Shown here: positions 17,678-33,538 of the stretch, one piece after another
Position numbering within the stretch: position 1 is the first letter of the stretch
Layout of the letters: every line of letters starts with the position of its first letter
Assembly: GCA_024103275.1 (NCBI GenBank)
Contig: JAGFIV010000036.1
Location: 6,279-70,278 of the forward strand
Length of the DNA stretch: 64,000 nt
Direction of reading: 5' to 3'
Source of the DNA: Flavobacteriales bacterium
GTDB lineage: Bacteria; Bacteroidota; Bacteroidia; Flavobacteriales_F; PHOS-HE28
Notes under the pieces: generated by a model
Database searches by the model: none
Seen by the model: the letters and a program-made list of their open reading frames with translations, nothing else
Told to the model about the DNA's origin: nothing
Position numbers and translations under genes: made by a program

Positions 17678-18769
17678 GTGAAGGACTACCTTGGGCCGTT
17701 GAAAAACGCGATGCCCCAAGGCCAAGGCCACATAGCGAACGGCGTGTTCGCTCCGGAAGGGGCACTGCAAAAGGTGGGAAGCGCTGATTTTTTTGGCTTA
17801 GGGTATGAACCCTTCGGGTCCCTGTTGCCCGGACGCAACTACAGCTCCGATGCGTACCGGTTCGGGTTCCAGGGACAGATCAAGGACGACGAGGTGTACG
17901 GGGCCTCCGGCACCAGCTACGCCGCTGAGTTTTGGCAATATGATCCGAGGACGGCGAGAAGGTGGAATTTGGACCCTGTCAGATATCCGTTTCAGTCATC
18001 TTATTCGACCTTCAACAATGACCCAATTCGATACATGGACCCTAATGGGTTATATGGGACAAAAGCCGAGGCTAAACAGATGCGCAGAGAAGCTAAAGCT
18101 GCAGGATTGAATCCAAGGAAAGTGTATAAAGCAAGCAACCAATGGGGTTTTAATACTAGTGAAGGAGAGTCGGTCGTTGGTAATTTCAAGAGAACGTTTT
18201 TCGGAGAAAGTAGTTCTTGTGTACAAGACGCATCAGATCTTGGTGAAGATCATATATTCCAAAATCCAGTTAATCGTTTAACGGGTCTGTTCCAGTCGAT
18301 GTCACTTCTGGATGACTTCTCGAAAGGGTTAAAGTACGGCGAAGAGTATTTTGATCCGAATTCTGGTTTTTCATATATGATGAAGAATTCACCAGGGGTT
18401 AGAAAAGCTGTAGATGAATTCATCGCAACAGCTGGAGACCAAACCAGTAGGGCATATGGCTTTAGCCCGAATACGGCTTCCATTGGTGGGTTCTGGAGTT
18501 CTCTTCCTGAATCAATTGGTGCACATTGGAACGTGGTGACGGATGTGAATATGGCTCGGCTTACTACGGGAGGTTACACTGCGGTCATTACTCCAACAAG
18601 TAATGATAACATTATTAGAATTCATCTAAATAACGACATGTCTTTGGGGTCATTGCTTTTGCATACACGATGGGCGGAAGAGCACACCCCCCTAGTTGGT
18701 CCATTCCATACGGTTTCCATGAAAATTGATTTAGGTCTTTTCAATATTGAATCTCTTAGGAAAAAATGA
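17678..18769 (+). CDS. Orphan Rhs C-terminal toxin cassette 2 (Rhs core-end fragment + distinct CT domain)
   Basis: Shares GYEPFGSLLPGRNYSSDAYRFGFQGQIKDDEVYG with cassette 1, at near-identical nucleotide sequence. The core end is YAAEFWQYDPRTARRWNLDP...YMDPNGL. A completely different ~270-aa low-GC C-terminal domain follows. Confidence 0.8.
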   Translation: MKDYLGPLKNAMPQGQGHIANGVFAPEGALQKVGSADFFGLGYEPFGSLLPGRNYSSDAYRFGFQGQIKDDEVYGASGTSYAAEFWQYDPRTARRWNLDPVRYPFQSSYSTFNNDPIRYMDPNGLYGTKAEAKQMRREAKAAGLNPRKVYKASNQWGFNTSEGESVVGNFKRTFFGESSSCVQDASDLGEDHIFQNPVNRLTGLFQSMSLLDDFSKGLKYGEEYFDPNSGFSYMMKNSPGVRKAVDEFIATAGDQTSRAYGFSPNTASIGGFWSSLPESIGAHWNVVTDVNMARLTTGGYTAVITPTSNDNIIRIHLNNDMSLGSLLLHTRWAEEHTPLVGPFHTVSMKIDLGLFNIESLRKK

Positions 18770-19401
18770 AAATAGCGATTAATTATTTATTTGTTATACT
18801 ATCTATATTGCTATTTGCTTTTTTGATTAGTGGCTGCAATTATTGCAAATGCGATGAGACAGGAGGGATTTCTGGTTTTTATATCTGTGATAGAACGAAT
18901 GATAATAATGCGGAGTATATTTGGATATTTGGGGATAATACATATGTTCACATGTTCGATTATGATACGATTAGATATATAAATTCTGATACTTGGTCTA
19001 TTAGGCGTGATCACATTGAGTTATTTATAGCAAATAACTGGGTGGCTCCATGTGAATATGGAAGAGATGCTTGTTATAAAAGGATGGAGTACGTGAATAG
19101 CAATAATTACAACGAGTACCTAGGGTCTATGGCGCAGCTTAGCTATGGGTGCCTCGTTGGACTGGACGACTCTTGCTATTTTAGACTGATATCCCAGTTT
19201 AATCCTATGTTCAATTATAAAAAGATACACAATTCAGAATATAGGGATTATTCCTTGTTTATGGATGCCTTTTTCTTTAGTAAACGAGATTCGGTAATGT
19301 TTTCCGAAATAAATGAAACCCTCGTTATTCCTCTGACTAGCGCGGGCGCCGCGAGTGGGTCCTCTCCCAACCCGCGCTCGGGTGTGCGCGGGTCCAGATG
19401 A
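18766..19401 (+). CDS. Putative immunity protein for Rhs-CT toxin 2 (lipoprotein)
   Basis: The ATG overlaps the toxin stop (ATGA). Lipobox LISGCN. AT-rich and Cys/Tyr/Asn-rich. The 3' ~30 codons lie in a GC-rich repeat element. Confidence 0.55.
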   Translation: MKIAINYLFVILSILLFAFLISGCNYCKCDETGGISGFYICDRTNDNNAEYIWIFGDNTYVHMFDYDTIRYINSDTWSIRRDHIELFIANNWVAPCEYGRDACYKRMEYVNSNNYNEYLGSMAQLSYGCLVGLDDSCYFRLISQFNPMFNYKKIHNSEYRDYSLFMDAFFFSKRDSVMFSEINETLVIPLTSAGAASGSSPNPRSGVRGSR

Positions 19402-19835
19402 TCCCCCCAACGCGCCCCAACCCGCGCCCGGGTGTGCGAGGGTCCAGATGATCCCGGCGCTCGCTTGCAGCGAGTGCCCGTAGAGCCATCCGCCTCTGCC
19501 ACCGGGCAGGTCCGGCGGTCCCCCAACCCGCGCTCGGCTGCGCGAGGCCAGAGAAGAACCCGGCGCTCGGCTTTGCCGGTAATTCCAGTAATCTGCCGAG
19601 TGCCCGGCGCATATTCTCCGCCTCCGGCGGCCTGTGGTACATTAGGCAACATGAGCGACCTTCCTTAAGCTCACCTGTCAGGACCGGTTGCTTACCTTGC
19701 CGGAGCACTATGGTTACAGCAGCGCCCACTCCAAAAGCCCGGTCAAGCTGTTCGGCCAATGATGAACCAGCGAGAAACGGCCAAAGGCCGGAGGGAACGG
19801 GCACTCGGCACAGCCGAGCGCCGGGGTGGGGGTGT
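19341..19835. repeat. Composite block of GC-rich mosaic repeat elements (tandem module 1 copies, module 2, ~160-bp module 4)
   Basis: Two tandem cccgcgc(t/c)cgggtgtgcg(c/a)gggtccagatgatcc units. Then gcttgcagcgagtgcccgtagagccatccgcctctgccaccgggcaggtccggcggtc. Then a ~160-bp segment (ggaccggttgcttaccttgccggagcactatggttacagcagcgcccactcc...ggcactcggcacagccgagcgccggggtggg) that recurs at 20810-20966. Confidence 0.7.
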
Positions 19836-19887
19836 CCTTCACCAAGGAGGATATCCCCAACCGGAACAAGGAGCTGGTGGGGTGATG
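19836..19887. repeat. Direct repeat copy 2 (duplicate of cphA 3' end) - putative attR of integrative island
   Basis: ccttcaccaaggaggatatccccaaccggaacaaggagctggtggggtgatg matches 12646-12697 at 50/52 positions. It is followed by a 28-codon remnant ORF (MWMTGYMQSIF...). Confidence 0.75.
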
Positions 19888-19915
19888 TGGATGACGGGCT
19901 ACATGCAGTCCATCT

Positions 19916-20329
19916 TCACAGCGAACGCACGAACGAGCCCGGTGTCAATACGGGGATCCGGGAGCGCTTGAAGCCGGCCGAATCCCGGGTGATGATCAGG
20001 TCGGCTTTCAGCTGGACCGCGCATTCATATTGCACGGCATCCTCCAGATCCGGGAAATCGAAGGCCAAGGCCCGGTCGATGCAGCGCTCATCCACCGGGG
20101 CGACCCGGATCAAGGTGCGCAGTTTGTCGAGTGCCCGCTTCGCTGCGGCCGGGCCATGCGACCGGCGCAACAGGAAGTTGAGCGTGGTGAAACTGAGCGC
20201 ACAAAGCCAGAGTTCCATCACGCCTTCATCGGCCGCATTGAAGATCAGTTCAGCGTCGTCGGCGAAGGGAGTCCGGTTGGCCAGGTAGTCCAGGACCACA
20301 TTGGTGTCCACCAGGGCCTTGCGCATCAC
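19916..20329 (-). CDS. vapC: PIN-domain toxin (VapC-like, type II TA)
   Basis: 137 aa. MMRKALVDTNVVLDYL, a conserved Asp at the N-terminus, and ...LIITRDSAGFK are typical of VapC. A 4-nt overlap with the upstream small gene. Confidence 0.85.
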   Translation of the reverse strand: MMRKALVDTNVVLDYLANRTPFADDAELIFNAADEGVMELWLCALSFTTLNFLLRRSHGPAAAKRALDKLRTLIRVAPVDERCIDRALAFDFPDLEDAVQYECAVQLKADLIITRDSAGFKRSRIPVLTPGSFVRSL

Positions 20330-20583
20330 CTGTACTTCTTCGCAAGATGCTCGGCGTATGCTTCCTTGTGGTCAAGGTTTGCAGGGGCTACGATGATCCC
20401 ACGCAGGCTCCGGACCTTGGCGGAGACCTTCCGCCGGTGCCTGAGTGATCGCTTCCTGTTGCTGAATGTGGCCCTGAGGAAATCCTCGAACATCCTGCTC
20501 AAGCTGGTGTCATGGTCGGCCGCATACTCCTTGGCATCCTCAATGATACCCTTGTCCAACAGCAGGGTCAACTTGGCTTTCAT
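20326..20583 (-). CDS. Putative antitoxin partner of VapC (DUF6364-like small protein)
   Basis: Start at MKAKLTLLLDKGIIEDAKEYAADHDTSLSRMFEDFLRA (86 aa). The stop overlaps the vapC start (ATGA). The upstream part of the long ORF lies in the repeat element and was excluded. Confidence 0.65.
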   Translation of the reverse strand: MKAKLTLLLDKGIIEDAKEYAADHDTSLSRMFEDFLRATFSNRKRSLRHRRKVSAKVRSLRGIIVAPANLDHKEAYAEHLAKKYR

Positions 20584-20654
20584 ACGTACAAAGTTAAACG
20601 CTTTTGTACGTATTTCGCGGCGGCCTGGCGGGATGTGGATTCCAATGGGATCGG

Positions 20655-20966
20655 GCCCCCAACACGGTGCTCGGGTGGGCGAGGGTCCGGCTGATCCCGG
20701 CGCTCGCTTGTAGCGAGTGCCCGTGGTGCTATCCGTCCCTGCCTCCGGCAGGCAGATCCGGCGGCTTGCGGTACCTTCATCAACATAAGCGAGCCCCCGC
20801 AAACTCCCCTGCCAGGGCCCGGTTACTTACCTTGCCGGAGCACTATGCCTACAGCAGCGCCCACTCCGAAAGCCCGGTCAAGCTGTTCGGCCAATGATGA
20901 ACCGATGAGAAACGGCCAGAGGCCGGAAGGAACGGACACTCGGCACAGCCGAGCGCCGGGGTGGGG
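20655..20966. repeat. GC-rich mosaic repeat element block (modules 1+2+4)
   Basis: Near-copy of 19413-19835. It ends with ggcactcggcacagccgagcgccggggtgggg, the same sequence that immediately precedes attR at 19800-19833. This marks a second, degenerate junction. Confidence 0.7.
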
Positions 20967-21181
20967 AATCTTTCCCCGGGCGGATTCTACCGAATCGAAA
21001 ATGTTTTGCTACACTTGCAAAGATGTTGTGGTTTCCGCAGGCAGGATGTTGGACAGGTGAACTGACCAGGATTTAAACATGAGATACTATGGATGATTAA
21101 TGGAATGCGCTGCTTGTAGGAATCCACATCCAGTGTAGGCCGCATTTCGTAGGACACAATAGACTAAAACAACGATAGAGC

Positions 21182-21694
21182 ATGGATACCCCTAGTAATT
21201 TGAAGATAGAGCAGGCAATGAGAAGTTGCCGGGAGGTCTTTGATGCATTTTATCGAATGGTTGCCACTGGTGGTCAAGTCAATCCTTGGATGTGGACTTC
21301 TTATCAAGAGAATAGCATTATTTTTGCGAGGGATTATATCGCCGAGTTTGATTCGGAAATTGTTGAGCTCAGGAACAGCCTCGCAGATAACTCTGATTAT
21401 ATTTTGGAAGTGAATGATATTGTCTCAATAATAACTGGAGTAGGATGTCGAAATTTTTGTAATATAACTTCTTTGTTGATGAAGTCCGATTCGCAAGGAT
21501 TTCGTAGAAATGATGATTTAGTAAATAGCGTTAGAAGCTCAATAGAGATTGGAATTAAGATGATGAATGAGTGTAAGCAATTAAAGATGACACCTGAGAA
21601 TAGGGAGAGTTTTATGGAGAATGTTAGAGTATTTGATTATTTTAGAGGAGAGTTTAAATCTCTTACAAGCAAGGGGTTATTTGGTCTTTTTTAA
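21182..21694 (+). CDS. Hypothetical protein encoded in AT-rich orphan cassette
   Basis: 170 aa ORF with strongly lower GC than its surroundings. It is flanked by repeat elements on both sides. No signal peptide and no recognised motif. Confidence 0.5.
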   Translation: MDTPSNLKIEQAMRSCREVFDAFYRMVATGGQVNPWMWTSYQENSIIFARDYIAEFDSEIVELRNSLADNSDYILEVNDIVSIITGVGCRNFCNITSLLMKSDSQGFRRNDDLVNSVRSSIEIGIKMMNECKQLKMTPENRESFMENVRVFDYFRGEFKSLTSKGLFGLF

Positions 21695-21704
21695 CAACGG
21701 ACTA

Positions 21705-21940
21705 ATCCGCGCTCGGGTGCGCGAGGGTCTAGATAATCCCGGCGCTCCCCCCGCTCCCGCAAGTCTTCCGGCCCAACCGTAAGGTGAGTTTGGCGAAAGA
21801 ACAGGCCTGGCGACTTGTGGGTCTCTGCTCTCAACGCCCCCACCCGCGCTCGGGTGGGCGGGGGGCCAGATGATCCCGGTGCTCAAGGTGACCGGTGATT
21901 CCAGCAATCTGCCGGGTACCCGCCTTGCCCACCGCTCCAG
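21705..21940. repeat. GC-rich mosaic repeat element block (modules 1+3+1)
   Basis: ccgcgctcgggtgcgcgagggtctagataatcccggcgctc, then ccccgctcccgcaagtcttccggcccaaccgtaaggtg (as at 14088-14125), then cccgcgctcgggtgggcggggggccagatgatcccggtgctc and ggtgattccagcaatctgccgggtacccg. Confidence 0.7.
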
Positions 21941-21968
21941 TCGAAGGCGTCTCAAGTGACGTCCCCAC

Positions 21969-23909
21969 TCACTTCTCCAACCGGATCCGCTGGCGGAACA
22001 CCGTGCGCCCATTGCGCAGCACCGCGACCACATAGCGGCCCGGCTTGGCCCAGTGGATGTCGATGGGGAAGGAGCCTTCCTTCAGCGGCTGCTGCGGCTT
22101 GATCTCCAGGATTGAAGTGCTGTCCGCGCTGCTCACGGTGATGTGCAGCTTGGAGGCCTCGTTGGCGAAATAGTCCAGCCGCGTGCGGCCCTGGGTGCGG
22201 CGCGGGAAGAGGCTGATCACCGGCACGGTGTCCGGTGCCACGGTGGGGGTGTCGCCCGTTCGGAACAGGTAGACCAGGCCGTTGCCGCAATCGCTTTCGA
22301 AGTTCTTGAGCAGCCGTCCCGCGCTGTCCAGCAGGCGCAGGTAGCCGCTTCCGCCCTCGGTGTTGTACCAGAACTCCAGCCCGTCACCGGCGGTGTCCTG
22401 CAATTGCAGGCGGTTGGTGGCGGCCGGCAGGTGCAAGGTGTCGGAATAGAGCGTATCAGCTTTCATGGAGCCGAGCGGCCGGTCTACCAACGCTTTGCCG
22501 GATGCATCGGTCAGTCGGAGCGCGTTCTGCTTGGGTTGGGCATTGGTGCGCAATTGCAGCACCACGGTGGCGGGCAGCACATCCTCCGGGGCATACGTGC
22601 TGCGCAGGCTGTTATCGGCGCGCCAGGCGTCGCGCTTGCCGTTCGGCTTCTCCAGCATGGCCTTGAACATGTTTCGTCCAGGGCCATGGTCGATCGGCCC
22701 CGGAAGGTTCACGGTATCGCTGGCGCCGAAGGGCAGGAGGCCGTTCCACTCAAAGGTCCGCATCGCACCGCCCGCGCTGCCGTAGCGGATGGTGAGTGAC
22801 CGCAGCGTGTCGCCGCCGGCGTTGGCGATCATGATCCGGGGACCGTCATGCGTCGCATTCATGCGGGCGTTGCGTGGTTCATCGCTCGGCACCAGCACTT
22901 CGGTGATCATCGCATCATTCGCGGCCTTGGCCCGGCCCAGCTGCACCGCGTATGCGGAAAGGTCCGTGACCGCCGTGCTGCTGTCCGCGGCGTACGGTTC
23001 CATGTTGATATCCACCACATGCTCCGCCATTCCCGGGGTCAGTGGCACCGTGAGCCGGTCCGGAGGCTGCATTTCACCGGGGCACCAATCCGCGCGGTCG
23101 AAGATCCATGTGCCGGCCTGCGGCTGCAGCGGGTTGCTGGCGCATTCCTTCCAGAGCTTGCGGTGCTGCACCTCCTTGCCGTCCACCACGATGCTTCGCC
23201 ATTTGGCGCAGAACTCGCCGCAGCCGTCGGCAGGGTTCATGCCGTGGCCCGTCTGCTGGGTGCGTATGCGCAGCCATTCGGCGCCGGGCAAGGTGTGGAT
23301 GGTGCGCGGTGCCAACTCGCGTTCAATGGGCTTGGTGCTGTCGCCATACGCGAAGCTGCCGCGGTACAGCTCCTGGATGCCCAGCACTGGGGCGATGGGC
23401 TTGCCGGTGATGTACCGCAGGTCCAGGCTCACCGCCCAGCCGCGGTCATTGTTGGACTCGTAGCCATGGTGAACGTGGATCAGCTCCACGCTATCGCGCA
23501 ATACGGGCCAAAGCTCGCTGACATCGGAGGCCCACGTGAATTGCCAGCCGTGCTTGTAATAGCCGCCGTAGGGGGTAAGCATACGGGCCAGTTCAATGGT
23601 GTCACTGCCGTGGAGGGGCTTCACCAGCACCTGGTCCAGATAGTCCCATTCGCCGCAGTTCAGGCTGTCCGGGCAGGCGTAGGTGAGGTTGAGCAGGATG
23701 CGCCGGACCGGCGTGGAGGCCGGCGGCAATTGTACCGTGCGACGGACAAGGCGGACCCCTGCTGTGGGATCGGTGGTCACCAGTTCCCGGTCAAGGACGT
23801 TCACGTGCAGCGTGTCCTGGGCCTGGACAATGTGGCCGAACAGGCACAAGAGCAGGAAGGGCAGCGAGTTGGGCACGGGGCACGATGGCATGGGGCGGGA
23901 AAATTCCAC
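21969..23909 (-). CDS. Secreted PNGase F-like (peptide-N-glycosidase F domain) protein with T9SS C-terminal sorting domain
   Basis: Signal peptide present. CGEWDYL, TPYGG, DGCGEFCAKW and DRADWCPGEMQPP parallel the PNGase F motifs CDEWDRY, TPYW, RGCAEWCF and DRAGWCPGMAVP. The C-terminal ~80 aa (...GRYVVAVLRNGRTVFRQRIRLEK) is a typical T9SS type A CTD. Confidence 0.8.
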   Translation of the reverse strand: MEFSRPMPSCPVPNSLPFLLLCLFGHIVQAQDTLHVNVLDRELVTTDPTAGVRLVRRTVQLPPASTPVRRILLNLTYACPDSLNCGEWDYLDQVLVKPLHGSDTIELARMLTPYGGYYKHGWQFTWASDVSELWPVLRDSVELIHVHHGYESNNDRGWAVSLDLRYITGKPIAPVLGIQELYRGSFAYGDSTKPIERELAPRTIHTLPGAEWLRIRTQQTGHGMNPADGCGEFCAKWRSIVVDGKEVQHRKLWKECASNPLQPQAGTWIFDRADWCPGEMQPPDRLTVPLTPGMAEHVVDINMEPYAADSSTAVTDLSAYAVQLGRAKAANDAMITEVLVPSDEPRNARMNATHDGPRIMIANAGGDTLRSLTIRYGSAGGAMRTFEWNGLLPFGASDTVNLPGPIDHGPGRNMFKAMLEKPNGKRDAWRADNSLRSTYAPEDVLPATVVLQLRTNAQPKQNALRLTDASGKALVDRPLGSMKADTLYSDTLHLPAATNRLQLQDTAGDGLEFWYNTEGGSGYLRLLDSAGRLLKNFESDCGNGLVYLFRTGDTPTVAPDTVPVISLFPRRTQGRTRLDYFANEASKLHITVSSADSTSILEIKPQQPLKEGSFPIDIHWAKPGRYVVAVLRNGRTVFRQRIRLEK

Positions 23910-23921
23910 GGGCCGGGCTGC

Positions 23922-24161
23922 TCACTTCCGCAGCGCCCTCACCAAAACGATGAGCAGCACGGCGCCCGCCGTGGCGCTGACCAGCTGGCCGATCCTGTTG
24001 GTCACGGCGAGTCCCAGCATGTCGAAGACCAGGCCGCCGACCAGCCCGCCCACGAGGCCGACCAGGATGTTCATCACCACGCCGTATCCTTCGCCCTTCA
24101 TGATCCGGCCGGCCAGCCATCCGGCCGCGCCACCGATGATCAGGCTCCAAAGCAGACCCAT
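23922..24161 (-). CDS. GlsB/YeaQ/YmgE family stress-response membrane protein
   Basis: 79 aa with glycine-zipper TM motifs: LIIGGAAGWLAGRIM and ILVGLVGGLVGGLVFDMLGL. Confidence 0.85.
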   Translation of the reverse strand: MGLLWSLIIGGAAGWLAGRIMKGEGYGVVMNILVGLVGGLVGGLVFDMLGLAVTNRIGQLVSATAGAVLLIVLVRALRK

Positions 24162-24182
24162 GTTGTTCTTTTTTGTTGGCCT

Positions 24183-24216
24183 GGGAAAAAGAAAAGCCCC
24201 GGTGGCGGGGCTTTTC
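24183..24216 (-). terminator. Rho-independent terminator downstream of rplS
   Basis: On the minus-strand transcript: aaaagccccgc-cac-cggggcttttcttttt. A 6-bp GC stem plus A/U extension and a U-rich tail, between the rplS stop and the glsB-like gene. Confidence 0.7.
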
Positions 24217-28540: not shown

Positions 28541-31500
28541 GGTGACGTGCCCGTACCTTTCCTCCTGCACGATGCCGACAGGGGTGAGGCTCTTGTAGCG
28601 CAAGTGCCAGTTGTAGATGCCCTGGGGGGCTTCCTGGCCCTGGGAGTTCCCGTCCCATCCGGCATCCGGATCGCCCGAGGCAAAGATCAGTTCGCCCCAG
28701 CGGTTGAAGATGTGCAGTTCCCATTGGTCCACCGTTTCGTGGATCACCGGCCGGAAGACGTCGTTGCGTCCATCGCCATCCGGCGTGAAGGCATTCGGCA
28801 CATGGATGAGCGGGGTGCAGATGCCCGGGTCGATCCGGATGCTTCCCGTGGCGTTGATGCAGTATCCCGTCACATGGACCGTGTAGGTGTCGGGCGCGGT
28901 GATGGCCAATGTTGGCCCGGTGGAACCATCGCTCCAAGCGAACGCCGCCGCACCCGGCGTATGGGCGTCCAGGAGCAGGCTGGTGCCCGGGCAGAGCTCC
29001 CGGTCCGGCCCCAGGTCAATTTGGGCCAATTCCGGCCGGAAGAGGATGTGTACCGCATCGCTGGCGGTGCATCCGTCCTGGCCGATCGTCACCGCATAGG
29101 TCCCTGTCGTGGTCACCGCCAACTGCGGACCGGTGGCACCGGTGCTCCACAGCACGGAGGCAGGGCCGGGATCCACGCTGAGCAGCACCGTATCCCCGAT
29201 GCAGGATTCCCGGTCCACGCCCAGGTCGATCACAGGCAGGGACACGTAATCCACGGCCATCGCGGATTGTGCGGAACAACCGCCCAGGGTGACGGTGGCC
29301 TGGAATTCGCCGTCGGCCGACACCATCCGCTGGGGCGCTGCCAGCCCGTCCTGCCAAAGCACGGAGGCACCCGGGATGTCCACGGACAATAGCAAGGTGG
29401 CACCCGGGCATAGCACGGTATCATTCCCCAGGGAGAAACCGGACAGGTCCACAACCTCCACGTCGACGCTGGCCGAGGCTTCACATCCATCCTTGGTCAC
29501 CGTGACGGTGTAGGTGCCGGCGGCATCCACCGGCAAGGCGGGGGCGGTGCTGCCCGTGTTCCAGAGGTAGGAGGCGTTGTCCTGGGCCACATCGATCGTC
29601 CAGGTGGCCGGGGCGCACAGCGTGGTGTCCGCAGGCAGGTGCAGGTCGGGCAAGGGGATGCCTTGGACCGCAAGGTCATCGCCGGCGGTGCAACCGTCCA
29701 CGGTGACCGATACCGTCCACACGCCTGGCGGCAGCGACCTTACAGCCGCGGTGCTGCCGTCGTTCCACAGGTAGCTTCCCCCCGGCACTGCGGCGGAGAC
29801 CGCGAACGTGGCGTTGCCGCATACGCTCGTGTCCGGCCCCAGGTCCACCACGGGCAGCGGGACTTCCGTCACTTGGACCGTATCGGACGCGGTGCATCCA
29901 TCCTCCGTGGCCTGCACCCAATACACGCCGCCCTGCGTGATCGTCCGGGTACCGCCCGTGGTGCCGTCATCCCAAAGCAAGCCTTGGCCCGGCACGGAAA
30001 GGACCATGGACTGGCCCGCACAGAATGATGTATCCGGCCCCAGGTCAGGCATGACCGGGTCAACCACCTGCACCAGGATTGAATCCGTGAATGCGCAGCC
30101 CGAGACGGTGGTGGAGGCGATGTACAGCCCGCTTGCCGTAACACCGTACGTGGGGCCCGTGGCCGTGCCGGCCCCGGACCACTGTGTGGTGCCGCCTGGC
30201 ATGCCGGCATCCAGCAACAAGGTGCTGCCCGTGCAGATCGTGGTGTCCGCACCCAAGGTGAAACCGGTTGTCGCCAAATAGGATACGACAATGTCGTCGG
30301 AGCCGGTGCATCCGGTGCCATCCGTGATTTCCACTTCATACACGCCATCGGTGGTCACCAGGAAGCTGTTGCCCTGCGAACCGTCCTGCCATGTGGCCTG
30401 CACCCCCGGAAGAGCGACTTCCAACACCAGCGATCCCCCCGGGCACAGGGTGGTGTCATTGCCCAGGTTGACGACAAGGGCGGGAATGGCCGTGAGCAGG
30501 ATGGTGTCGCTCACCGTGCAGGTGCCCAAGGTGACGTCCACCCAATAGCTGCCAGCAGTCCCGGTGGAAAGCACCGGCCCTTGGTCACCATTGCTCCAAC
30601 TGTAATCCGTGGCACCGGGCAGGCTGGCATCCACGGTCGCCGTGGTGCCCCCACAGAAGTCCAGGTCGGGGCCGAGGTCGAGCGACCCGGGATCGGCAAA
30701 GGCCACCGCGATCGTGTCCTCGGCGGTGCATCCGTTCGCATCGGTGAGGAGCAAGGAGATGATCGCAGCGGTTTGGACGGTGATGGCGGGGGCCGTTTCG
30801 CCGGTGCTCCACGTGTAGGAGGCACCAGGCTGCGTGGCATCGATCGTCAGGGATTCGCCGGGGCAGAGCAAGGTATCCGGCCCGAGGTCGAGCATCGGGG
30901 GCACCTGCCCGGTGATGGTCGTGGTATCCGAGCCGGTGCAGCCGCTCACGGCCACTTCCACCCACCAAGTGCCGGCCCCGGCATTGATCGATGCGGTGGT
31001 GGCACCGGTGCTCCACAGGTAGGAGGCCCCGGCGGTGGATGCATCCAGGGTGATGGTGGCACCCGGGCATACCTGCAGACCGTTCGGCAAGAAGACCTGC
31101 GGCGACGGGTTCTCCCCCACGAGGATGGAATCCCGCACGGTGCACCCGTTGAGGATCACGTCCACCCAATAGGTACCCGGCGAGCCCACCGTGATCGAAT
31201 CGGTGGTGGCACCGGTGTTCCACTGATAGGTGGCCCCGGCCAATTGCAGGCCGATGCGCACGGTGGATCCGCTGCAGAACGCGATGTCGGGCCCCAGGCT
31301 GACCAGGCCGGGATCGGCATACGACACGATGATGGTATCGTGGCCGGTGCAGCCGTTGCCGTCCGTGACCACGACGGAAGCCGTGGTGGGGGTGCTGATG
31401 GTGATCGCCGGCGTGGAAGCACCGGTATTCCACACATACGTGGCCCCCGGTTGCGTGGCATCCAAGGTGATCGTTTCGCCCGGGCAGAGCGTGGTGTCCG

Positions 31501-33538
31501 GTCCCAGTTGCACCGTGGGCGGCACGTGCTCCGAGATGGTGATGGCATCGGTGCCCGTGCAGCCCCCCACTGTGACCTCCACCGCCCATGTGCCGGCCCC
31601 CGCCTGGATCACGGGCGTGGTGGCCCCGTTGTTCCACAGGTAGGATGCCCCCGTGGTGGTGGCGTCCAGCAAGATGGTTTGGCCCGGGCACACGGCTTGG
31701 TCGGCACCCAGGCTGAAGGCAGGGAGGGGAATTTCAGTGATCAGGATGGAATCCCGGGCCGTGCATCCGTTGAGCGTGGCTTCCAGCCAATGGATGCCGG
31801 GCCCGCTTACCGTGATGGAATCCGTGGTGGCGCCCGTGTCCCAGAGGTAGGTGGCCCCGGGTATGCTGGCACCGATCCGGACGGAGGCCCCTGCACACAT
31901 GGCCAGGTCGGGCCCCAGGTCCACGGTCTGCACGTTGAACAACGACAGGGCCACGGTATCGCGGCCGATGCATCCGCCGACGGCCACCTCCACGGAATAC
32001 GTTCCGGGATTGCCCGTTACCAGTTGCGCTGTGGCATCACCGGTGTTCCACAGGTACGTGGCGCCGGGCGTGGAGGCATCGAACGTGGCCAGGTCGCCCG
32101 GGCATATCGTTTGGTCCGGGCCCAGGTCAACCGCAGGATCGGGGGTGAAGGCCACTTGGATCCCGCCCTGTGCGGTGCATCCGTTCAGGTCCACCTCCAC
32201 TTCGTACAGGCCCGATGCGGTCACCACGCGGGTGGGTGAGGTAAGCCCGTCCTGCCAGAGATAGGTGGCGCCGGGGACGGTGGCGTCCAGCAGCAGGGAT
32301 CCTCCGTCGCACAAGGTGGTATCGTTGCCCAGTTGGACGGTGGGCATGGGGTTGTAATCCACTTGGATGGAATCGCGGGCTGTGCAGTTGCTGGCTTCGG
32401 CCTCCACCCAGTACAGGCCGGGGCCGTTCACCAGGAAGGTAGGGTTGGTCGATCCATCCTGCCACAGGTACGTGTACCCCGTGCCGGGTACCGAAAGGTT
32501 CAACGTGCTGCCGTCGCACAGCGCGGTGTCATTCCCCAGCTGGAGCGTTGGCACCGGTGTGTATTGGATGGTCACTTGGTCCGTGCCGGTGCATCCTTGC
32601 GCCGTCACGTCCACGCTGTAGGTGCCGGCCTGGTCAACATGGAACGTGGGACCGGTGCTGCCGTCCTGCCACAGGTAGGTGGCCCCAGGGAAGGTGGCAT
32701 CCAGGTCCAGTTCATCGCCATCGCAAAGTGCCTGGTCCGGCCCCAGGTCCACGCTTGGTGACGGGGTCACGCTGACATGCAGGGTGTCCCGCAGGTAGAC
32801 CATGCCGGAGATGGAAATGTCGTCGATGCCGAAATCGTCCCCCACGCCATGGAGGGAAGTGATGCGGATGCAGGCATTCACGCTGGTCTGGCCGGGCCCG
32901 GCGGTCCACGTGGTGGTGAAGGTCTGCCAGCCCGCATTGAAGGTGGGAAAGGTGAAATCCGGCCAATTGGCGGTGGCCCCGTTCATGCTCCACACCGCGG
33001 TGGCGGGCAATTCATTGGTGAGGGTCCTCCCCCTGAAGGAGAGCGTATAGGTCTGGCCCGGGCAACAGGGAATGGTCTGGCACCACACGTCCCATTGGTT
33101 GTTCACCCAAGAGACCCATCCGCCATTGGCGATGAGGAAATTGCCGTTGCCGGTCCCTTGGAACTGGGGATGGTACCAGCTGGCGTTGGGCCCCACGGTG
33201 TAGTACCCTTCATTCTGGACCGAAAAGAGGGAGTAGGTGTACTGGGAGGTGAAGCCGGTATTGCCGCCGGAGAAATTCCCGTTCGTCACCAGTTCCCCGC
33301 TGGGGTAGCTCACCTGGCACCAATAGTCGCCGGCATTCCCCACGGTGATGGACGGCGTGGTGGCTCCCGTGCTCCACAGGTAGTTGGTGTAGCCCGCAGG
33401 TCCTTGCAGTTGGGTGGTCTGCCCTTGGCAGATCGTGAGGTCAGGCCCGATGTTGATGGAGCAGACCGGTTGAGCGGAAAGGACCAATGCCGCCGGCACG
33501 AGCCCTATGGCCGCGGCCCCCCGTGAAAAAAAATGCAT
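28529..33538 (-). CDS. Giant cell-surface protein: ~17 tandem Ig-like repeats + gliding-motility-associated C-terminal domain (CHU_C / T9SS type B)
   Basis: Start at MHFFSRGAAAIGLV (signal peptide). A unique ~230-aa N-terminal domain is followed by repeats of the form LGPDxxxCxGxxxxLDAxxPGATYLWxxGxTxxxxxVxxxGxYxVxVxxNGCTxxDSIxV. The C-terminus ...VPNAFTPDGDGRNDVF...FNRWGELIF...YKSLTPVGIVQEERYGHVTLLR is the CHU_C sorting domain. Confidence 0.85.
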   Translation of the reverse strand: MHFFSRGAAAIGLVPAALVLSAQPVCSINIGPDLTICQGQTTQLQGPAGYTNYLWSTGATTPSITVGNAGDYWCQVSYPSGELVTNGNFSGGNTGFTSQYTYSLFSVQNEGYYTVGPNASWYHPQFQGTGNGNFLIANGGWVSWVNNQWDVWCQTIPCCPGQTYTLSFRGRTLTNELPATAVWSMNGATANWPDFTFPTFNAGWQTFTTTWTAGPGQTSVNACIRITSLHGVGDDFGIDDISISGMVYLRDTLHVSVTPSPSVDLGPDQALCDGDELDLDATFPGATYLWQDGSTGPTFHVDQAGTYSVDVTAQGCTGTDQVTIQYTPVPTLQLGNDTALCDGSTLNLSVPGTGYTYLWQDGSTNPTFLVNGPGLYWVEAEASNCTARDSIQVDYNPMPTVQLGNDTTLCDGGSLLLDATVPGATYLWQDGLTSPTRVVTASGLYEVEVDLNGCTAQGGIQVAFTPDPAVDLGPDQTICPGDLATFDASTPGATYLWNTGDATAQLVTGNPGTYSVEVAVGGCIGRDTVALSLFNVQTVDLGPDLAMCAGASVRIGASIPGATYLWDTGATTDSITVSGPGIHWLEATLNGCTARDSILITEIPLPAFSLGADQAVCPGQTILLDATTTGASYLWNNGATTPVIQAGAGTWAVEVTVGGCTGTDAITISEHVPPTVQLGPDTTLCPGETITLDATQPGATYVWNTGASTPAITISTPTTASVVVTDGNGCTGHDTIIVSYADPGLVSLGPDIAFCSGSTVRIGLQLAGATYQWNTGATTDSITVGSPGTYWVDVILNGCTVRDSILVGENPSPQVFLPNGLQVCPGATITLDASTAGASYLWSTGATTASINAGAGTWWVEVAVSGCTGSDTTTITGQVPPMLDLGPDTLLCPGESLTIDATQPGASYTWSTGETAPAITVQTAAIISLLLTDANGCTAEDTIAVAFADPGSLDLGPDLDFCGGTTATVDASLPGATDYSWSNGDQGPVLSTGTAGSYWVDVTLGTCTVSDTILLTAIPALVVNLGNDTTLCPGGSLVLEVALPGVQATWQDGSQGNSFLVTTDGVYEVEITDGTGCTGSDDIVVSYLATTGFTLGADTTICTGSTLLLDAGMPGGTTQWSGAGTATGPTYGVTASGLYIASTTVSGCAFTDSILVQVVDPVMPDLGPDTSFCAGQSMVLSVPGQGLLWDDGTTGGTRTITQGGVYWVQATEDGCTASDTVQVTEVPLPVVDLGPDTSVCGNATFAVSAAVPGGSYLWNDGSTAAVRSLPPGVWTVSVTVDGCTAGDDLAVQGIPLPDLHLPADTTLCAPATWTIDVAQDNASYLWNTGSTAPALPVDAAGTYTVTVTKDGCEASASVDVEVVDLSGFSLGNDTVLCPGATLLLSVDIPGASVLWQDGLAAPQRMVSADGEFQATVTLGGCSAQSAMAVDYVSLPVIDLGVDRESCIGDTVLLSVDPGPASVLWSTGATGPQLAVTTTGTYAVTIGQDGCTASDAVHILFRPELAQIDLGPDRELCPGTSLLLDAHTPGAAAFAWSDGSTGPTLAITAPDTYTVHVTGYCINATGSIRIDPGICTPLIHVPNAFTPDGDGRNDVFRPVIHETVDQWELHIFNRWGELIFASGDPDAGWDGNSQGQEAPQGIYNWHLRYKSLTPVGIVQEERYGHVTLLR

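Follow-up and report, generated by a model that had tools for sequence, protein, structure and literature searches.

Short intergenic palindromic repeats of modular build are known from several bacterial groups, among them the repetitive extragenic palindromic (REP) sequences and bacterial interspersed mosaic elements (BIME) of enterobacteria, the BOX elements of Streptococcus pneumoniae, and Correia and other elements that resemble miniature inverted-repeat transposable elements (MITE). Foreign DNA can also build up by site-specific accretion, which leaves decayed cis-mobilisable remnants next to an integrated element, as in the case of the integrative and conjugative element ICESt1 and the cis-mobilisable elements (CIME) of Streptococcus thermophilus, where one copy of the attachment (att) site is found per junction. 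Arrays of orphan Rhs and other polymorphic-toxin C-terminal tails with their immunity genes are likewise known, and the Pfam families Toxin-JAB1, PT-TG and Ntox21 were matched in this analysis. Here, we analyze a stretch on the 3' side of the cyanophycin synthetase gene cphA (positions 19888-21968) within 64,000 nt of DNA from Flavobacteriales bacterium GCA_024103275.1 (contig JAGFIV010000036.1, positions 6,279-70,278, + strand). This whole DNA is called the window in the following; its content of guanine plus cytosine (GC) is 0.62, all positions are given in its coordinates, and genome-wide copy counts refer to these 64 kb of the host genome. The stretch contains a GC-rich repeat, a VapBC-like toxin-antitoxin pair and an orphan open reading frame (ORF). 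A further described system, the recombinase-associated acquired interbacterial defence clusters (rAID-1) of gut Bacteroidales, is defined by an XerD-like recombinase on the 5' side with 44% identity or more to BF9343_RS08045, at least two co-directional low-GC genes downstream of it, and repetitive intergenic sequence. In these clusters, orphan immunity genes form a co-directional array that is headed at its 5' end by the recombinase (Ross et al., bioRxiv 10.1101/471110).

A preliminary description had read the GC-rich repeat as a second, older and degenerate att junction, and the stretch as the product of tandem accretion beyond a neighboring island. The reading that we favor, and to which we give about an even chance, is a different one: a strain-specific patchwork, assembled piecemeal at a hotspot, together with a lineage-specific family of REP/BIME- or MITE-like palindromic repeats, and not a decayed att site. 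On this reading, the DNA between cphA and rplS is a hypervariable gap in an uncultured Flavobacteriales population, and positions 19888-21968 would be its older part, free of the island. Independently acquired modules (a 0.7-kb VapBC module, a 0.73-kb low-GC ORFan block and, beyond them, a PNGase-like gene) would be separated by lineage-specific GC-rich palindromic units, which we call alpha, beta, gamma, delta and D17. The supposed second junction would be the second full copy of a bounded composite of about 312 nt, leading from an alpha head to an inverted beta hairpin and an inverted alpha head, and probably copied as a unit by whatever route. Direct-repeat copies of this kind could be substrates for homologous recombination, by which the cassettes between them would be deleted, duplicated or swapped, and such recombination would yield the alternative arrangements seen in metagenome contigs.

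All sequence-level statements of the preliminary description were confirmed, with refined limits. The module of about 160 bp that precedes the attR-like repeat recurs some 1.1 kb further on (19681-19831 and 20816-20966, 93% identity) and is there followed by unrelated DNA of lower GC content instead of the cphA-end repeat. A VapBC-like pair lies between both copies, and a low-GC orphan ORF lies amid further repeat units. The similarity extends further than had been described, to a direct repeat (19623-19831 and 20757-20966, 87% identical, E 3e-68) that defines a 210-nt module, delta, present at two sites only. Upstream of each delta copy stands a three-hairpin unit of about 110 nt (19412-19518 and 20655-20764, 83% identical). 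The whole repeated object is a composite of 312 nt (20655-20966), which at the first site measures 420 nt (19412-19831) because a further 104-nt unit (unit E) is nested in this copy. The motif TCCGGCGG is found on either side of the nested unit (19511-19518 and 19623-19630), and it is also the normal end of the gamma hairpin.

Both composites start at the alpha head and end at GGGGTGGGG, with unrelated flanks on either side. The end of GGGGTGGGG is the last base common to both, after which copy 1 runs into the 55-nt cphA-end repeat. When the alpha start is compared with the reverse complement of the delta end, 24 of 28 positions match in both copies, giving inverted ends of about 28 nt with scores of 16-17 against a 99th percentile of 11 for random 40-mers of the window. 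Profile searches with nhmmer also detected beta in inverted orientation at the end of each delta (E 4e-4 and 5e-4), along with weak inverted alpha matches. The composite is short and non-coding, and it has defined ends that form terminal inverted repeats. A candidate relationship of delta to the tail of an IS200-like or REP-associated Y1 transposase, suggested by a frame ending ...LPEHY(G/A)YSSAHS... and a stop, was dropped: the frame had no Pfam or NCBIfam match at E up to 10, its tblastn search against plasmids returned a single match at E = 7 to a hypothetical protein, and blastn against plasmids returned nothing.

Regarding the att sites, accretion predicts one repeat per junction, that is, three for two elements, and the locus holds only two copies of the cphA end, identical over their central 35 nt. 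The sequence after the second delta copy (delta2) is no closer to the cphA end than random 76-mers of the window (empirical p ~1.0). A scan of 19895-24200 on both strands for remnants of the cphA end gave nothing significant; its best match, 13 of 15 positions in the last codons of the PNGase-like gene, scored 20 against a null 95th percentile of 19 over more than 800 windows. A decayed cphA end after delta2 was rejected on local alignments that were non-significant against both shuffles and the window-derived null, and D17 or alpha as diverged att copies were rejected as well (p 0.14-0.25). A position-anchored comparison of the 45 nt following each delta reached p ~0.003 with mononucleotide shuffles only, which was deemed too weak. 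For comparison, 13 Flavobacteriales metagenome-assembled genomes with cphA 82-90% identical were fetched with 10-kb flanks, and none of these 13 relatives has a duplicated cphA end, so that the integration mechanism is not visibly at work elsewhere. Erosion is unlikely, since conservation of the module stands at 93% right up to its last base and similarity then breaks off abruptly. We infer that this abrupt stop is a discrete end, and the second module is seen more aptly as one end of a bounded inverted-repeat element than as an att junction. The idea of an older, eroded junction was given up, and a second integration event should not be deduced from the second junction.

The GC-rich repeats are modular and combine their parts in varying ways. 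Alpha is a unit of about 45 nt (…CCCCAACCCGCGCTCGGGTGNGCGNGGG…GATCCCGG), beta a variable hairpin (GGCGCTCGC-TTGCA-GCGAGTGCC), gamma a third hairpin that is present in some units, and D17 a separate unit of about 50 nt found at 14088 and 21749. Altogether, the locus has two full composites and six partial units. Profile searches found eight alpha units, all on the + strand and all within 14.6-21.9 kb; the remaining 54 kb of the window and 1.5 Mb of DNA from other genomes yielded none. A degenerate alpha pattern matched exactly five times in the window against 0.00 expected from shuffles, which excludes chance. From 14.0 to 21.9 kb, almost all cassette boundaries are occupied by repeat units, among them those of rearrangements inside the island. 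The palindromic beta hairpin is conserved in structure: 92% of the cells in its stem are paired, three of nine pairs have changes on both sides, and the covariation score was reached by 2 of 500 shuffles, all on a sample of 8 sequences only. Neither the repeat units nor the junctions matched an Rfam family or a tRNA, and intrinsic terminators were rejected as an explanation for the units, the hairpins being without T-runs.

Two observations concern the surroundings of these units. D17 is kept in a different species (L004, cphA 88% identical), where an inverted pair (13313-13355 on the + strand and 13474-13512 on the - strand) lies in the gap after cphA and adjoins the stop of a convergent secreted-protein gene. 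In the window, two lipoprotein-like (immunity-like) ORFs run from low-GC DNA into the GC-rich repeats (14050-14121 and 19340-19401), their last residues being repeat-encoded (...PAPASLPAQP and ...SPNPRSGVRGSR); the repeats thus abut or truncate the 3' ends of cassettes.

The repeats also share a short motif. CCCAACC occurs eight times on the + strand of 12.6-22 kb (at 12666, 14111, 14892, 19366, 19416, 19522, 19856 and 21772), against two in the remaining 54.6 kb, a density 23 times that elsewhere in the window, and it does not occur on the - strand of 12.6-22 kb. It belongs to three unrelated repeat families, namely the sharp left edge of alpha, D17 and the identical att core. This 35-nt identical core is itself dyad-symmetric (CATCCCCAACC...GGTGGGGTGATG).

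That the 3' flank of cphA is a hotspot which has gained foreign DNA more than once is supported by the comparison with the 13 relatives. In the closest one (L003), 160 bp separate cphA from a homologue of the small membrane protein gene found in the window at 23922-24161, behind which lie rplS and trmD. In the other 12 the gap measures 0.26, 0.43, 0.9, 1.3, 2.4, 2.5 or 3.7 kb, or it reaches beyond the available flank (up to >10 kb), and its cargo is different in each relative. The RHS cassettes, recombinase, VapBC, ORF 21182 and PNGase-like gene of the window were found in none of the 13 syntenic gaps, so the variable interval extends from 12696 to ~23920. Within it, GC content differs sharply from module to module (VapBC 0.60, ORF 21182 0.36, PNGase-like gene 0.65). 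VapBC and ORF 21182 are consequently no conserved core genes of this locus. The PNGase-like gene, which had been taken as core, belongs to the variable interval as well, because it is non-syntenic in every relative: it gave no tblastn match in the 13 syntenic loci or in any other fetched locus. The proposal of repeated insertions at one hotspot therefore stands as far as the variable gap and several acquisitions are concerned, and falls with regard to a second att junction; as a whole, the tandem-accretion interpretation is partly supported. The corrected boundary runs from the cphA stop (12695) to ~23920, which is beyond the 21968 at which the stretch ends.

In the case of the VapBC pair, the gene arrangement of a PIN toxin with an overlapping upstream antitoxin would class it as a type II toxin-antitoxin system. 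The antitoxin gene was called as an 85-aa gene in two contigs (L097/L098), the PIN_3/DUF6364 pair is conserved in four more (L124-L127), and the 11-bp inverted repeat over the antitoxin start is probably its operator. In another organism, a 78%-identical VapC with its DUF6364 partner is a solitary insertion between pyrimidine genes and pfk. DNA homology (75%) to solitary copies extends from 19915 to 20592-20614 and then stops, which places the module edge at ~20614. Because a solitary copy exists elsewhere and the homology ends at the module edges, this VapBC is a self-contained 0.7-kb module and need not be the remnant of a larger element.

ORF 21182 and the 215-nt spacer before it form a single 0.73-kb low-GC block. 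Four relatives of the protein were found among 1.84 billion representatives, and neither a family nor a fold match was obtained. Its predicted structure is all-alpha, with a predicted local distance difference test score (pLDDT) of 91.5 and a predicted template modeling score (pTM) of 0.86, and on this model it is a real protein, a well-folded ORFan. No link to toxins or immunity was detectable, and an immunity role would be a guess from context only. A contig with P0126 (JGI sample 3300056388) has a 97%-identical VapBC pair in a similar layout, in which a 114-aa ORF takes the position of ORF 21182 and the next gene follows after a gap shorter by 547 bp. Strains may accordingly differ in the cassette that occupies this slot. 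In the PNGase-like protein, a putative T9SS cargo, Pfam gives N-glycanase_C only, with no Por_Secre_tail at E up to 0.01.

Variant contigs of the same population, which also occurs in ENA assembly ERZ22666005 and in GCA_009612875.1, were found by exact-protein look-ups. Three short ones, L096 (run SRR27217539), L088 (SRR9016294) and L087 (SRR29092738), run across the att, delta and D17 repeats in arrangements other than that of the window. In L096, cphA is joined to VapC by a single hybrid repeat, attL-like on the left and attR-like on the right, as in an unoccupied (empty) site for the 7.2-kb island; the crossover lies in the 35 identical nt, and a chimera is possible. The runs behind L096 and L089 are represented by no contig in the look-ups of the recombinase and of imm2, which favors a real empty site. 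L088 joins the side of the first delta copy (delta1) to ORF 21182 without VapBC. In L087, the XRE gene adjoins ORF 21182, unit G and D17; a circle or a tandem duplication formed between both copies of D17 would have this junction. For many contigs of this population the break falls precisely on a repeat, and the repeats systematically break short-read assemblies of the locus. In metagenome contigs L002, L084 and L119-L123, the end coincides with the cphA stop or with the first alpha unit that follows imm2.

Table 1. Coordinates of repeats and genes at the cphA 3' flank (window positions; a dot marks features given without strand).
Feature	Position	Strand	Evidence or remark
cphA 3'-end repeat, left copy (attL-like), with cphA stop at 12693-12695	12646..12700	+	55 nt, 94.5% identical to right copy
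D17-containing unit	14050..14180	+	D17 14088-14130 97.7% identical to 21749-21791; nhmmer E 1e-15; hairpins scored
Unit A (alpha-beta-gamma), in island between XRE gene and HTH (helix-turn-helix) gene remnant	14586..14690	+	nhmmer E 3e-28
Unit B (alpha-beta), deletion boundary upstream of recombinase gene	14889..14950	+	nhmmer E 1e-13
Unit C (alpha only), overlapping last codons of second immunity-like ORF	19364..19405	+	nhmmer E 1e-13
Composite copy 1 (alpha-beta-gamma, nested unit E, delta1)	19412..19831	+	ends 4 nt before attR-like repeat; aligned to copy 2
Unit E (alpha-beta'), nested in copy 1, gap in copy 2	19519..19622	+	76% identical to unit H (family D13)
cphA 3'-end repeat, right copy (attR-like)	19836..19890	+	
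vapC, PIN-domain toxin	19916..20329	-	PIN_3 E 2e-22, PIN E 7e-10
vapB-like antitoxin (DUF6364), 4-nt overlap with vapC	20326..20583	-	DUF6364 E 4e-21
Perfect 11-bp inverted repeat ATACGTACAAA / TTTGTACGTAT over vapB start	20583..20613	.	read from sequence
Composite copy 2 (alpha-beta-gamma-delta2), the former second junction	20655..20966	+	
Spacer, one low-GC block with ORF 21182	20967..21181	.	GC 0.45, no ORF, no cphA-end similarity
ORF 21182, low-GC ORFan, 170 aa, predicted all-alpha bundle	21182..21694	+	GC 0.36
Unit G (alpha + D17), 7 nt after ORF 21182 stop	21701..21796	+	nhmmer alpha E 1e-14, D17 E 1e-15
Unit H (alpha-beta'), 47 nt from stop of convergent PNGase-like gene	21835..21922	+	nhmmer E 7e-13; family D13
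PNGase F-like secreted protein gene	21969..23909	-	N-glycanase_C E 1e-10; normal GC

The only documented site-specific insertion at the locus is the 7.2-kb recombinase island, which measures 7.19 kb between the 55-nt repeats of the cphA end. Its two cassettes are each made up of RHS-core-end head, low-GC toxin tail and lipoprotein-like ORF; the conserved 121-nt head is repeated within the island, and the first tail is Toxin-JAB1. In addition, there are an XRE gene, an HTH gene remnant, an Xer-like tyrosine recombinase and an ORF6N anti-repressor-like gene. The 306-aa recombinase has about 50 relatives at 77-87% identity. It is Xer-like at scores far below the model cutoffs (91 bits against 330 for the XerD model) and matched no integron-integrase model.

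Nine loci with 82-86%-identical recombinases share a conserved module in the order HTH(-), 73-aa ORF, PF27228 protein of 530-590 aa, 319-aa recombinase, 306-aa recombinase and ORF of 178-233 aa. This module is always flanked by polymorphic-toxin cassettes with a common RHS-core-end head (in the window at 12724-12906 and 17703-17922) and differing tails (Toxin-JAB1, PT-TG + Colicin_D, Ntox21). No immunity family was recognized for any cassette. The element family is uncharacterised, and the island of the window (12692-19401) is a reduced copy of it: about 3 kb of the conserved module are missing, with units A and B and a foreign HTH fragment in their place. Directly behind unit B, 32 nt (14951-14982) are 97% identical to the sequence found upstream of the recombinase in related elements. 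None of the nine loci contains alpha, beta, gamma or delta units, so that the repeats are a feature of the locus in this lineage and not a conserved element arm. VapBC and ORF 21182 are absent from the same nine loci, and the homology expected of remnants of the element family was not found. A classical 'recombinase in trio' element was rejected, as the 590-aa protein beside both recombinases is not a recognizable recombinase.

Some details of the island were noted in passing. The 319-aa and 306-aa tyrosine recombinase ORFs of the element family (L107-L115) overlap. Between units A and B, 14700-14880 on the - strand is a C-terminal fragment of a second HTH_3-type regulator, the N-terminus of which is replaced by unit B. 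The stretch 16645-17341 (GC 0.72) looks non-coding and has no Pfam match; in L110-L112, the ORF that comes directly behind the recombinase is 76% identical to it. Relative to these elements, the ORF6N gene (16046-16615) is inserted between recombinase and stretch.

Several points weigh against a patchwork with REP/BIME- or MITE-like repeats. A true REP or MITE family would be expected elsewhere too, yet the alpha pattern has no match in 185,579 species genomes, and its matches in metagenomes are two contigs, both pieces of the same island; with no alpha, delta or D17 match in viral contigs either, a genome-wide REP family was rejected on the evidence of these collections. Copies are known from one 8-kb cluster, within the 64 kb of the genome examined. 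Fold energies of the units are mostly unexceptional (z -0.3 to -2.7), a target-site duplication was looked for at the composite ends and none was seen, no cognate transposase was identified for the composite, and the delta peptide is without a transposase match. The crossovers of L096, L088 and L087 fall within 35-38 identical nt, longer than the assembly k of 31, and all three could be chimeras. Finally, no more than 4 nt lie between the end of composite 1 and the attR-like repeat, a proximity that would be a coincidence under the patchwork and is what an element arm predicts. Such an arm is central to tandem accretion, by which an older, island-related element at the cphA 3' end would have been joined by a newer island entering its attL, and would since have shrunk to VapBC and a right arm (alpha-beta-gamma-delta2) with its attR lost, like a decayed cis-mobilisable remnant. 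The position of delta1 is that expected of an attP arm, delta2 has the same right boundary, the newest element is nearest to cphA as the order requires, VapBC abuts cphA in L096 where the island is absent, the locus is a hotspot, and the anchored comparison left its weak signal after the deltas. All the same, we consider accretion unlikely, with the missing third cphA end, non-significant both against the window-derived null and in the scan, and the breakpoint-like stop after a 93%-conserved module speaking against it. Alpha-type units also lie far from any att site and even inside the island, sister elements are without alpha and delta and share no such arm, the VapBC homology stops at the edges of a module that is solitary elsewhere, and the relatives lack a duplicated cphA end.

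The strand bias of the CCCAACC motif, in alpha edge and att core alike, rather suggests a recombinase-driven cassette system of integron or rAID-1 type, in which alpha heads, D17 and the cphA-end core would be sites of an Xer-like recombinase that captures and shuffles cassettes, here toxin tails, immunity-like genes, VapBC and the ORFan. This would also account for the common orientation of all eight alpha units, for unit starts within a few nt of, or inside, the 3' ends of low-GC cassettes, for a recombinase family always found among polymorphic-toxin cassettes, and for the L087 junction, which fits a circle or duplication between D17 copies. The rAID-1 clusters offer a precedent in their combination of Xer-like recombinase, skewed-GC immunity genes and repetitive intergenic sequences (bioRxiv 10.1101/471110). 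We judge this system improbable nevertheless: the motif was chosen post hoc, and alpha and D17 do not align significantly with the att core; genes lie on both strands, with the recombinase in mid-island and not at a 5' end; alpha folds into short separate hairpins and not into one bulged attC-like hairpin; the Xer models score far below cutoff without an integron-integrase match; related elements with near-identical recombinases are missing the repeats; and the cassettes have no recognized immunity family. The more specific proposal that these sites belong to Flavobacteriales Xer-like recombinases, in a GC-rich environmental counterpart of integrons or rAID-1 with L087 as a circular or duplicated intermediate, is a long shot. 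Little probability is also given to plain local duplication, by which composite and units would have spread passively through unequal crossing-over or gene conversion, with neither mobility nor function. It agrees with co-oriented copies confined to 8 kb and found in the window and public collections at this locus only, and the tandem runs C-D-E and G-H look like unequal exchange. Arbitrary breakpoints would hardly produce the identical sharp boundaries, unrelated flanks and inverted ends of both composites, and compensatory changes in the beta hairpin and the inverted D17 pair of a different species speak against passive copying too. The patchwork with its lineage-specific repeats remains the reading that we prefer.

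Taken in this way, the locus is a natural example of a compact Flavobacteriales genome that concentrates foreign DNA at one intergenic site, with a small family of hairpin repeats marking the cassette boundaries. Should the repeats be recombinase sites after all, which is unlikely on present evidence, integron-like capture of toxin and immunity genes would extend from gut Bacteroidales to environmental Flavobacteriales. Elsewhere in the window, a very long ORF on the - strand (28900-33400) has many periodic repeats of ~207 nt (and 621 nt; families D1-D11), presumably tandem Ig-like or adhesin domains.

Compared with known systems, the units resemble REP, BIME, BOX and MITE sequences in being short, non-coding and GC-rich, with a few hairpin modules in variable order, inverted composite ends, positions just after stop codons and between convergent genes, and compensatory stem changes. 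They differ from them in having their copies in one 8-kb region, strictly co-oriented, with no target-site duplication and no transposase found. Like ICESt1 and CIME, the locus has a recombinase island at the 3' end of a conserved gene, direct repeats of the gene end and foreign DNA beyond the distal repeat; unlike them, it has two att copies with no third remnant, and the shared module also occurs away from att sites. With rAID-1 it shares the phylum, a tyrosine recombinase of Xer-like type, repetitive intergenic sequence, and cassettes of skewed GC content with links to interbacterial toxins and immunity. It is set apart by genes on both strands, by toxin tails with RHS-core heads, by cassettes with no match to known immunity families and by repeats that related elements lack. 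As to gene order, RHS-CT2 and imm2 are co-directional and low in GC, two normal-GC ORFs stand between them and the recombinase, VapBC lies on the other strand, and repeats are present. None of the integron hallmarks (IntI integrase, attC hairpin, co-oriented cassettes) was found, the units being two or three short hairpins and the cassettes lying on both strands. The two cassettes of the island, with conserved RHS-core-end head, variable low-GC tail and small lipoprotein-like ORF, are like those of orphan Rhs arrays, unlike positions 19888-21968, which have neither toxin head nor tail. The toxin-antitoxin pair, as predicted from its genes, has the PIN_3 toxin gene preceded and overlapped by a small antitoxin gene, the promoter inverted repeat and the small mobile format of VapBC modules, with a DUF6364 antitoxin in place of the AbrB, RHH (ribbon-helix-helix) or PHD-type VapB of classical ones. 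Altogether, repeat element, toxin-antitoxin module and island hotspot are all of known kinds, and the repeat family itself is lineage-specific and new.

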